A DNA stretch of 9,492 nt from a virus (lineage: Duplodnaviria > Heunggongvirae > Uroviricota > Caudoviricetes). The notes below the pieces were generated by a model. That model did not search any database. It had not been told where the DNA came from and worked only from the letters and a program-made list of their open reading frames with translations. Shown here one piece after another: positions 784-982 of the stretch. The stretch lies in IMG/VR virus record IMGVR_UViG_2526164691_000020; one strand, 5' to 3'. Position numbers and translations under genes: made by a program. Positions within the stretch are counted from its first letter, which is position 1, and each line of letters opens with the position of its first letter.

Positions 784-828
784 GGGCTGTAGTCCGGAAG
801 CCTGAATGACACACGGGGACTACAGCCC
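784..828. repeat. Perfect 12-bp inverted repeat (GGGCTGTAGTCC / GGACTACAGCCC) with 21-nt loop, in the nanS 5' leader
   Basis: Read directly: 784-795 is the exact reverse complement of 817-828. No U-tract follows on either strand. Confidence 0.55.
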
Positions 829-836
829 AAGAAATG

Positions 837-862
837 AAAAAAGGCCACGCAGTTGCGCAGCC
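837..862 (-). terminator. Intrinsic terminator (minus strand), 8-bp stem with two G-U pairs plus U6
   Basis: Minus-strand RNA GGCUGCGCAACUGCGUGGCC (complement of 843-862) followed by UUUUUU (complement of 837-842). Confidence 0.5.
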
Positions 863-924
863 TGATAAACCCTGGTTAAAATCCACACGATAACAACACA
901 ACAATATCAGTATCTCATGCTATT

Positions 925-949
925 GCCCGAACCCATTCGGGCATTTTTT
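925..949 (+). terminator. Intrinsic terminator (plus strand), 7-bp stem plus T6
   Basis: GCCCGAA-CCCA-TTCGGGC at 925-942 followed by ATTTTTT (943-949). Confidence 0.5.
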
Positions 950-953
950 ACCC

Positions 954-982
954 ATAAAAAATGCCCCTCCGGAGAGGGGCAT
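954..982 (-). terminator. Strong intrinsic terminator (minus strand), 9-bp GC-rich stem plus U-tract
   Basis: Minus-strand RNA AUGCCCCUC-UCCG-GAGGGGCAU (complement of 961-982) followed by UUUUUUAU (complement of 954-960). Confidence 0.65.

Follow-up and report, generated by a model that had tools for sequence, protein, structure and literature searches.

The analyzed stretch of 9,492 nucleotides (the window) represents the late-regulatory region of a lambdoid Escherichia coli prophage with its genes on the minus strand. The nearest relative is found in strain 2013C-3264, with 99.8% identity over positions 741 to 1160. In this strain, the antiterminator gene Q precedes the cargo, which comprises a pseudogene of the TerB family and a DUF3927/TciB-like gene; next come an intergenic region of 440 bp, the sialate O-acetylesterase gene nanS-p, and the holin and lysozyme genes. 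Among the prophages of E. coli O157:H7 Sakai, Sp17 shows 99.2% identity and Sp10 97.4% identity with positions 700 to 1200 of the window; the Sp17 coordinate in NC_002695.2 equals the window position plus 3485498. A nearly complete 420-bp intergenic segment is present in 625 of 5,426 complete E. coli genomes. The features of the locus are summarized in Table 1; the terminator upstream of the cargo genes is assigned to tR' by its position and is putative.

Table 1. Features of the late-regulatory region in window coordinates, listed in the direction of late transcription
Feature	Position	Strand	Details and basis
Antiterminator Q gene	1929-2750	-	ORF list and annotation of 2013C-3264
Putative tR' terminator	Stem 1830-1813 plus T8 (within 1805-2750)	-	Terminator scan; downstream of presumed PR'
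Upstream cargo (moron): TerB/TciA pseudogene and DUF3927/TciB-like gene	1183-1690	-	Annotation of 2013C-3264 and ORF list
Candidate sRNA promoter	1113-1150	-	-35 TTGATT 1150-1145, 17-nt spacer, -10 TAAAAA 1127-1122
Gene for an STnc100-family sRNA; counterpart of EcOnc06 in Sakai Sp17; relative of PasD	950-1139	-	Rfam RF02076; late-gene strand
T1, intrinsic terminator of the STnc100-family sRNA	955-982	-	Stem 982-961, U-tract 960-955; scan and fold
AgvB anti-sRNA (GcvB sponge)	888-949	+	Rfam RF02702; seed CACAACA 897-903, terminator stem 924-943, U-tract 944-949
Candidate AgvB promoter	853-882	+	-35 TTGCGC 853-858, 18-nt spacer, -10 TAAAAT 877-882, start 888/889; read relative to the Rfam model 5' end at 888
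T2, intrinsic terminator	836-863	-	Stem 863-842, U-tract 841-836; overlaps AgvB -35; scan and fold
Conserved nanS-p 5'-leader stem-loop	783-829	-	13-bp perfect stem 783-795/817-829, 21-nt loop
nanS-p 5' part and Shine-Dalgarno sequence (SD)	1-750	-	SD GGGAGG 750-745, ATG 740-738; SASA-family sialate O-acetylesterase; annotation of near-identical loci and phage records

The segment between the cargo genes and nanS-p contains four structures: the minus-strand terminators T1 and T2, the plus-strand terminator of the anti-sRNA AgvB, and a stem-loop in the nanS-p leader. T1, T2, and the AgvB terminator are each built of a G+C-rich stem-loop followed by a U-tract on the transcribed strand, as is characteristic of intrinsic terminators, and form the top three terminator-like sites of the whole window in the terminator scan, which returns 21 such sites compared to 9.9 ± 2.7 in shuffled sequence. 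T1 comprises a 9-bp stem with 6 G-C pairs, a loop of 4 nt, and a T6 tail (RNA dG of -18.4 kcal/mol; z of -4.0). T2 likewise consists of a 9-bp stem with a T6 tail (dG of -14.9; z of -4.3), and the AgvB terminator has an 8-bp stem and a T6 tail, with the whole AgvB RNA folding at a z of -3.75 relative to shuffles. The leader stem-loop, ∼30 nt upstream of the SD, reaches -28 kcal/mol (z of -5.8), and none of 200 shuffles folds as well. The window contains 3 seeds of perfect inverted repeats of ≥12 nt within 60 nt, compared to 0.02 per dinucleotide shuffle of the window, and a single one of 13 nt, compared to 0.003 per shuffle.

An earlier reading made from the letters alone (here the sequence-only reading) had described two minus-strand terminators, a plus-strand terminator back to back with the first of these, and a perfect 12-bp inverted repeat at 784 to 828. 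All four structures are recovered within 1 to 2 nt of where it had placed them and exceed chance expectation; the repeat is perfect as described, with arms of 13 nt instead of 12 nt. The same reading held that this is more structure than simple termination needs. The dense stack is simply explained, because three transcription units end at 783 to 982, two of which are sRNA genes. Its interpretation as a whole is partly supported.

The match of the late-strand sRNA gene to the Rfam STnc100 model scores 131.3 bits (gathering score of 47) and extends over the full length of the model (positions 1 to 206), the terminal hairpin of which corresponds to T1. On the opposite strand, the match to the AgvB model reaches 96.5 bits (gathering score of 56), covers model positions 1 to 62 of 62, and is identical to the Rfam consensus at 62 of 62 positions. 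These two matches assign the plus-strand terminator to AgvB and the hairpin at 982 to 961 to the STnc100-family RNA. The ends of the two RNAs lie tail to tail, 1 nt apart. Tree et al. (2014; PMC4104026) describe EcOnc06 as an Hfq-bound RNA of Sp17 with a northern band of ∼177 nt, and a 2021 review (PMC7873438) describes AgvB and EcOnc06 as a dyad in which AgvB is transcribed antisense to EcOnc06. EcOnc06 would correspond to window positions 950 to 1139, given a shift of ∼130 to 140 nt between genome-version coordinates that is estimated from AgvB1. By this equivalence, the window copy is presumed to form a discrete Hfq-associated RNA as well. In EDL933, 11 STnc100 copies are present, several of them with RNA-seq reads and one confirmed by northern blotting.

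The window copy shares with the other members of this group, STnc100 (RF02076), EcOnc06, EcOnc27 (sRNA103), and PasD, the full-length Rfam match, the prophage site upstream of a sialate esterase gene, and the intrinsic terminator. It scores 131 bits compared to 208 bits for the copies of Stx2 phages, with a shorter central region, and it ends at T1, whereas a T2-type terminator closes PasD2 and the STnc100 copies in Evi and JLK-2012. Its 5' end is predicted near position 1113, ∼25 nt inside the Rfam model boundary, through homology to the reported 5' end of PasD2 (GCATGG); the ends of PasD2, as given by its authors, derive from RNA-seq coverage and northern size. A scan of 12 related loci shows STnc100 in every one of them and a match to AgvB or AsxR in 5. 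Variation in the STnc100/EcOnc27 region has been linked to clinical outcome. Older annotations of Sakai contain the hypothetical protein genes ECs_3499 and ECs_1960 antisense over the STnc100/AgvB region, comparable to positions 981 to 1310 of the plus strand of the window; these calls over the sRNA genes are probably spurious. The TerB/TciA-like cargo gene at 1312 to 1690 on the minus strand is annotated in the 99.8% identical strain as a pseudogene interrupted by an internal stop, and the moron protein may be dead while the adjoining sRNA dyad is intact.

AgvB is present as exact copies in Sakai Sp10 and Sp17 and shows no difference from the published RNA. With a length of 62 nt, it agrees with the description of its family, which combines a conserved 3' region of ∼42 nt and a Rho-independent terminator in a total of ∼60 nt; the match to the related AsxR model is weak (43 bits). 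The 5' variable region contains the consensus of GcvB R1 targets, CACAACA, and the complement of the seed shares a 12-nt word with GcvB R1 (positions 71 to 82 of K-12 gcvB). The pairing of AgvB with GcvB is judged here by the seed match, the energy of the whole-length duplex being set aside as it ignores intramolecular folding. The location also agrees, with Q, the TerB pseudogene and DUF3927 gene, and STnc100 convergent with AgvB, followed by nanS-p. Tree et al. (PMC4104026) place such convergent sRNA dyads between a moron coding sequence and a conserved open reading frame downstream of PR', in at least eight Sakai prophages between moron genes and nanS-p. AgvB of the window occupies this slot with an identical sequence. 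In the AsxR/EcOnc27 dyad of Sp5, the terminators stand tail to tail at a distance of 4 nt; the window pair is likewise convergent, with the ends 1 nt apart.

The same study describes AgvB1 (Sp10) and AgvB2 (Sp17) as Hfq-dependent RNAs of ∼60 nt among the most abundant Hfq-bound RNAs, with the 5' ends of EcOnc01 to EcOnc03 mapped by RLM-RACE. AgvB sponges the R1 seed of GcvB through CACAACA, as backed by compensatory mutations, and relieves the GcvB repression of targets such as dppA. Double deletion of AgvB1 and AgvB2 leads to a fitness defect in bovine rectal mucus (PMC4104026). Carried over from the identical Sakai sequence, AgvB at this locus is expected to be expressed, to bind Hfq, and to antagonize GcvB. 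The boxes of its promoter are candidates, with a score below the threshold of the consensus scan. The sequence-only reading had proposed an unannotated plus-strand transcript ending near 949. A small RNA with its 3' end at this position is indeed encoded, which is AgvB and thus neither unannotated nor new. The back-to-back terminators and the plus-strand RNA therefore represent an already known, published and curated system, the bulk of the four-structure stack is ordinary, and the window is one more copy of the published sRNA-pair locus of enterohemorrhagic E. coli (EHEC).

The candidate -35 box of AgvB (853 to 858) falls inside the hairpin of the second sense-strand terminator, T2. The complement of this box, GCGCAA, is invariant in 30 of 30 aligned leader variants. 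A T2-type hairpin, GGCTGCGC-loop-GCGCNGCC followed by U7-8, directly ends the STnc100/PasD sRNA in the phages Evi and JLK-2012 and in prophage PP2 of E2348/69, where there is no anti-sRNA. This hairpin lies at 1283 to 1301 of the Evi locus and at 704 to 730 of the E2348/69 PP2 locus, corresponding to 842 to 863 of the window. In phage Evi, it is the sole terminator after STnc100, and in E2348/69, the reported 3' end of PasD2 falls exactly at the T2-like hairpin and its U8 tract. In our reading, T2 may thus be the STnc100/PasD family's own terminator, with T1 and the anti-sRNA cassette sitting between the sRNA body and T2 in dyad prophages. The T2-type ending of sRNAs without a dyad suggests that the T1-plus-AgvB cassette was inserted before the original terminator or deleted from there. 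In E2348/69, the esterase gene is followed by PasA, encoded on the other strand, and preceded by PasD2 only; T2 is therefore rejected as the terminator of PasA or PasC.

The T2-type hairpin and the leader stem-loop align in 10 of 11 sequences of one alignment. The T2 stem comprises only 6 bp in roughly half of the leader variants, and the U-tract is degenerate in a few, which indicates that T2 is not uniformly a strong terminator; in one IMG/VR contig, the 3' arm of T2 is wholly absent. No minus-strand promoter for an anti-AgvB RNA is evident between T1 and T2. Neither T2 nor the leader stem-loop works as a plus-strand terminator, as no T-run follows either structure on the plus strand.

For the conservation of the nanS-p leader, a scan of genome contigs with the NanS-p N terminus returned only two Escherichia loci, and the diversity was therefore drawn from phage records and IMG/VR contigs. 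Leaders of Stx1, Stx2, and non-Stx phages were gathered together with those of 120 IMG/VR contigs (∼130 phage and prophage loci in total). They comprise 40 distinct variants, throughout which the leader is conserved; the alignment includes 30 of them. The stem-loop motif is found in 110 of 138 loci searched, upstream of the nanS-p start wherever positions were compared, and its single copy in each of the 110 carrying loci excludes a dispersed repeat. The arms are conserved, and the loop alternates between a type of 21 nt and a type of 28 nt. In the alignment of the stem-loop, 86% of the cells are paired. Seven of 21 pairs are changed on both sides, compared to 4.0 ± 1.0 in shuffles (3 of 500 reach 7) and 0 to 3 in slid controls; these covariation statistics come from related sequences, in which phylogeny can inflate such figures. 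The 7-bp basal helix is 96% paired, with exchanges of U-A for C-G and U-A for G-C and many G-U pairs. The most divergent variants fold with -20 to -23 kcal/mol on the sense strand, compared to -2.5 to -12 kcal/mol on the antisense strand. The G-U pairs and compensatory changes together with the bias of folding toward the sense strand thus indicate an RNA-level structure of the nanS-p leader. An unbroken stem of 13 bp belongs to the window type and is itself not conserved, as most variants contain one or two internal mismatches.

Rfam shows no match covering 783 to 829, even at an E value of ≤5. A literature search on nanS-p with text searches of nanS-p papers returned nothing on the stem-loop or intergenic structures, and T2 and the stem-loop receive no mention in the sRNA-dyad papers as covered by text searches and by Table S2 of Tree et al. 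Neither the promoter scan nor visual inspection shows a sigma-70 promoter for nanS-p between T2 and the SD. An upstream open reading frame of 54 amino acids (904 to 740, minus strand), ending with TAATG over the nanS start, runs through the terminator and the hairpin, and the alternation of 21-nt and 28-nt loops among homologues breaks its frame; it was rejected as a candidate. Natural variants of this leader include a 4-nt duplication (CAGC) in the 3' arm of the stem-loop in Sakai Sp10. An Escherichia albertii locus (positions 480 to 903) encodes a NanS-p with 92% identity over the N-terminal 246 amino acids, with a wholly unrelated upstream region that lacks the dyad, T2, and the stem-loop. 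Leader module and gene are therefore exchanged separately.

The ompA leader hairpin is a 5' stem-loop that stabilizes its mRNA. Purely as an analogy, the nanS-p leader likewise has a stable hairpin followed by a single-stranded stretch and then the SD. The most likely role of the stem-loop would be to protect or define the 5' end of a processed nanS-p/lysis mRNA.

Taken together, positions 783 to 982 are read as the 3' boundary of the moron slot in a lambdoid late operon, with a probability of about 0.8. This boundary consists of the known dyad of STnc100/EcOnc06 and AgvB, the back-up terminator T2, and the conserved stem-loop of the nanS-p leader. In the proposed sequence of events, the sRNA of the STnc100/EcOnc06 family would be transcribed on the late-gene strand and end at T1, which would stop sense transcription of the sRNA before a collision with agvB. 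AgvB would be transcribed convergently from the other strand, end 1 nt from the sRNA, bind Hfq, and pair with the R1 seed of GcvB. Sense transcription escaping T1 would cross agvB in the antisense direction and stop at T2, which most likely intercepts it ahead of nanS-p and the lysis genes. Together, T1 and T2 would keep transcription of the sRNA and the moron out of nanS-p and the holin/lysis genes in the lysogen. Q-modified polymerase reads through downstream intrinsic terminators. After induction, such a polymerase, starting from PR', would pass tR', T1, and T2, leading to the expression of nanS-p and the lysis genes.

We infer this Q-dependent read-through from lambdoid biology, from the tR'-like terminator at 1830 to 1813, and from the induction of nanS-p by mitomycin C, after which the nanS-p mRNA rises by 1 to 2.4 logs (PMC10462455). 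The proposal of the sequence-only reading that nanS is insulated unless the RNA polymerase is Q-modified fits both lambdoid late-gene control and this rise. With the lambda-type late control by PR', tR', and Q, the locus shares the Q gene, the tR'-like terminator, the cargo, the terminators ahead of the lysis cassette, and the induction of nanS-p with the prophage. Morons are described as carrying their own terminators (Juhala et al. 2000, cited in PMC4104026). In a lambda-type moron, the terminator belongs to a protein-coding gene, whereas the terminators here belong to two sRNA genes, and the read-through of T1 and T2 is inferred.

Different functions have to be weighed for T2 and AgvB. T2 could be no working terminator at all, its conservation reflecting the anti-sRNA promoter on the other strand, with the -35 box in the hairpin and the A-tract at -47 to -52 as an UP element. 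The invariant GCGCAA does sit where a -35 box is expected relative to the AgvB 5' end at 888, and the T-tract of T2 would provide an A-tract at the position of an UP element on the opposite strand. However, pairing extends to the arms of T2 beyond the -35 box and includes G-U pairs and GC-to-CG swaps. In 30 of 30 variants, the nanS sense strand gives the more stable fold, and PasD2 and STnc100 are terminated by a hairpin of this type at loci from which the anti-sRNA gene and its promoter are absent. T2 thus appears to be more than a by-product of a promoter, which makes this explanation unlikely; the roles as a terminator and as a promoter can coexist. AgvB, in turn, could act mainly in cis as an antisense RNA on the nanS-p leader or the late transcript, an idea raised by the sequence-only reading. 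Over 888 to 949, the read-through late transcript is the exact complement of AgvB, allowing pairing once Q-antiterminated transcripts exist, and the reason for the dyad arrangement is called unclear in the 2021 review (PMC7873438). Against this, AgvB lies upstream at a distance of at least 148 nt from the nanS start codon and does not reach into the SD region. The activity shown for AgvB, with proof by compensatory mutations and a fitness phenotype, is that of an Hfq-dependent sponge acting on GcvB in trans, and it is not documented there as a leader regulator (PMC4104026). The 5' seed differs among AgvB, AsxR, and EcOnc03 at a fixed position (PMC4104026), which points to targets in trans instead of a shared target in cis. 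A mainly cis-acting AgvB is accordingly quite improbable. As a long shot, T2 and the 13-bp stem-loop could act together in cis, as an uncharacterized conserved module in the leader of nanS-p and the lysis cassette. Here, pairing with abundant AgvB could trigger cleavage of the duplex, leaving a stabilized mRNA capped at its 5' end by the T2 hairpin and the stem-loop and draining the AgvB sponge at the commitment to lysis.

The function of the stem-loop as a stabilizer or processing element has two competitors. Translational control of nanS-p, by a ribosome standby site or in a thermometer-like manner, would agree with the fixed distance of ∼30 nt to the strongly conserved SD region CCCGGCCGGGAGG, which can itself fold and partly occlude the SD. 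The stem-loop pairs with the SD in none of the predicted folds, however, and the conservation of the SD region is partly imposed by the search pattern used to collect the leaders, so that control at this level has a low probability. Even less is to be expected of an action of the 13-bp repeat as DNA, in the form of a protein-binding palindrome, a cruciform, or a site of recombination at the module boundary. The palindrome is perfect in the window type and falls where the variable sRNA/moron region meets the conserved nanS-p module, and the E. albertii locus indicates that the leader is exchanged as a module. However, on the opposite strand, or within a cruciform, the many G-U and U-G pairs would turn into A-C mismatches, the divergent variants fold well on the sense strand only, and arms separated by 21 to 28 nt are unusual for a dimeric binding site. 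A DNA-level role is therefore very doubtful, and an RNA structure that protects or defines the 5' end of the mRNA is the preferred reading.

The locus is relevant to EHEC biology, as AgvB provides O157 with a growth advantage in bovine rectal mucus (PMC4104026). To the published picture, the present analysis adds three points: the -35 box of the anti-sRNA embedded in the second terminator; the likeness of T2 to the PasD/STnc100 terminator of prophages without an anti-sRNA, suggesting how the dyad was assembled; and the covarying conserved stem-loop of the nanS-p leader, matched by no Rfam model. These points, not found in the AgvB-dyad and nanS-p literature searched, are incremental and bear modestly on the reason for the placement of sRNA dyads at this site, a question raised in the 2021 review.

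Further observations concern the center of the dyad and the remainder of the window. The AgvB terminator and T1 mirror each other about a 4-nt center, forming a perfect 12-nt palindrome at 939 to 950 and 955 to 966 (GGGCATTTTTTA and TAAAAAATGCCC), in which the 3' half and tail of the AgvB terminator face the tail and 3' half of T1. At 892 to 903 (minus strand), RNA from sense-strand read-through contains UGUUGUGUUGUU, which equals 12 nt of the GcvB R1 seed (GcvB positions 71 to 82), because it is the complement of the AgvB seed. A weak Rfam match to GcvB is located within 836 to 984 of the same strand (20.7 bits; E value of 0.055). Judged by this sequence, the late transcript would be both a complement of AgvB and a mimic of the GcvB seed. 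The early region of the prophage contains a type I toxin-antitoxin locus, with a sok antitoxin RNA (RF01794; 99 bits) at 8373 to 8544 on the minus strand beside a hokD-type toxin gene.
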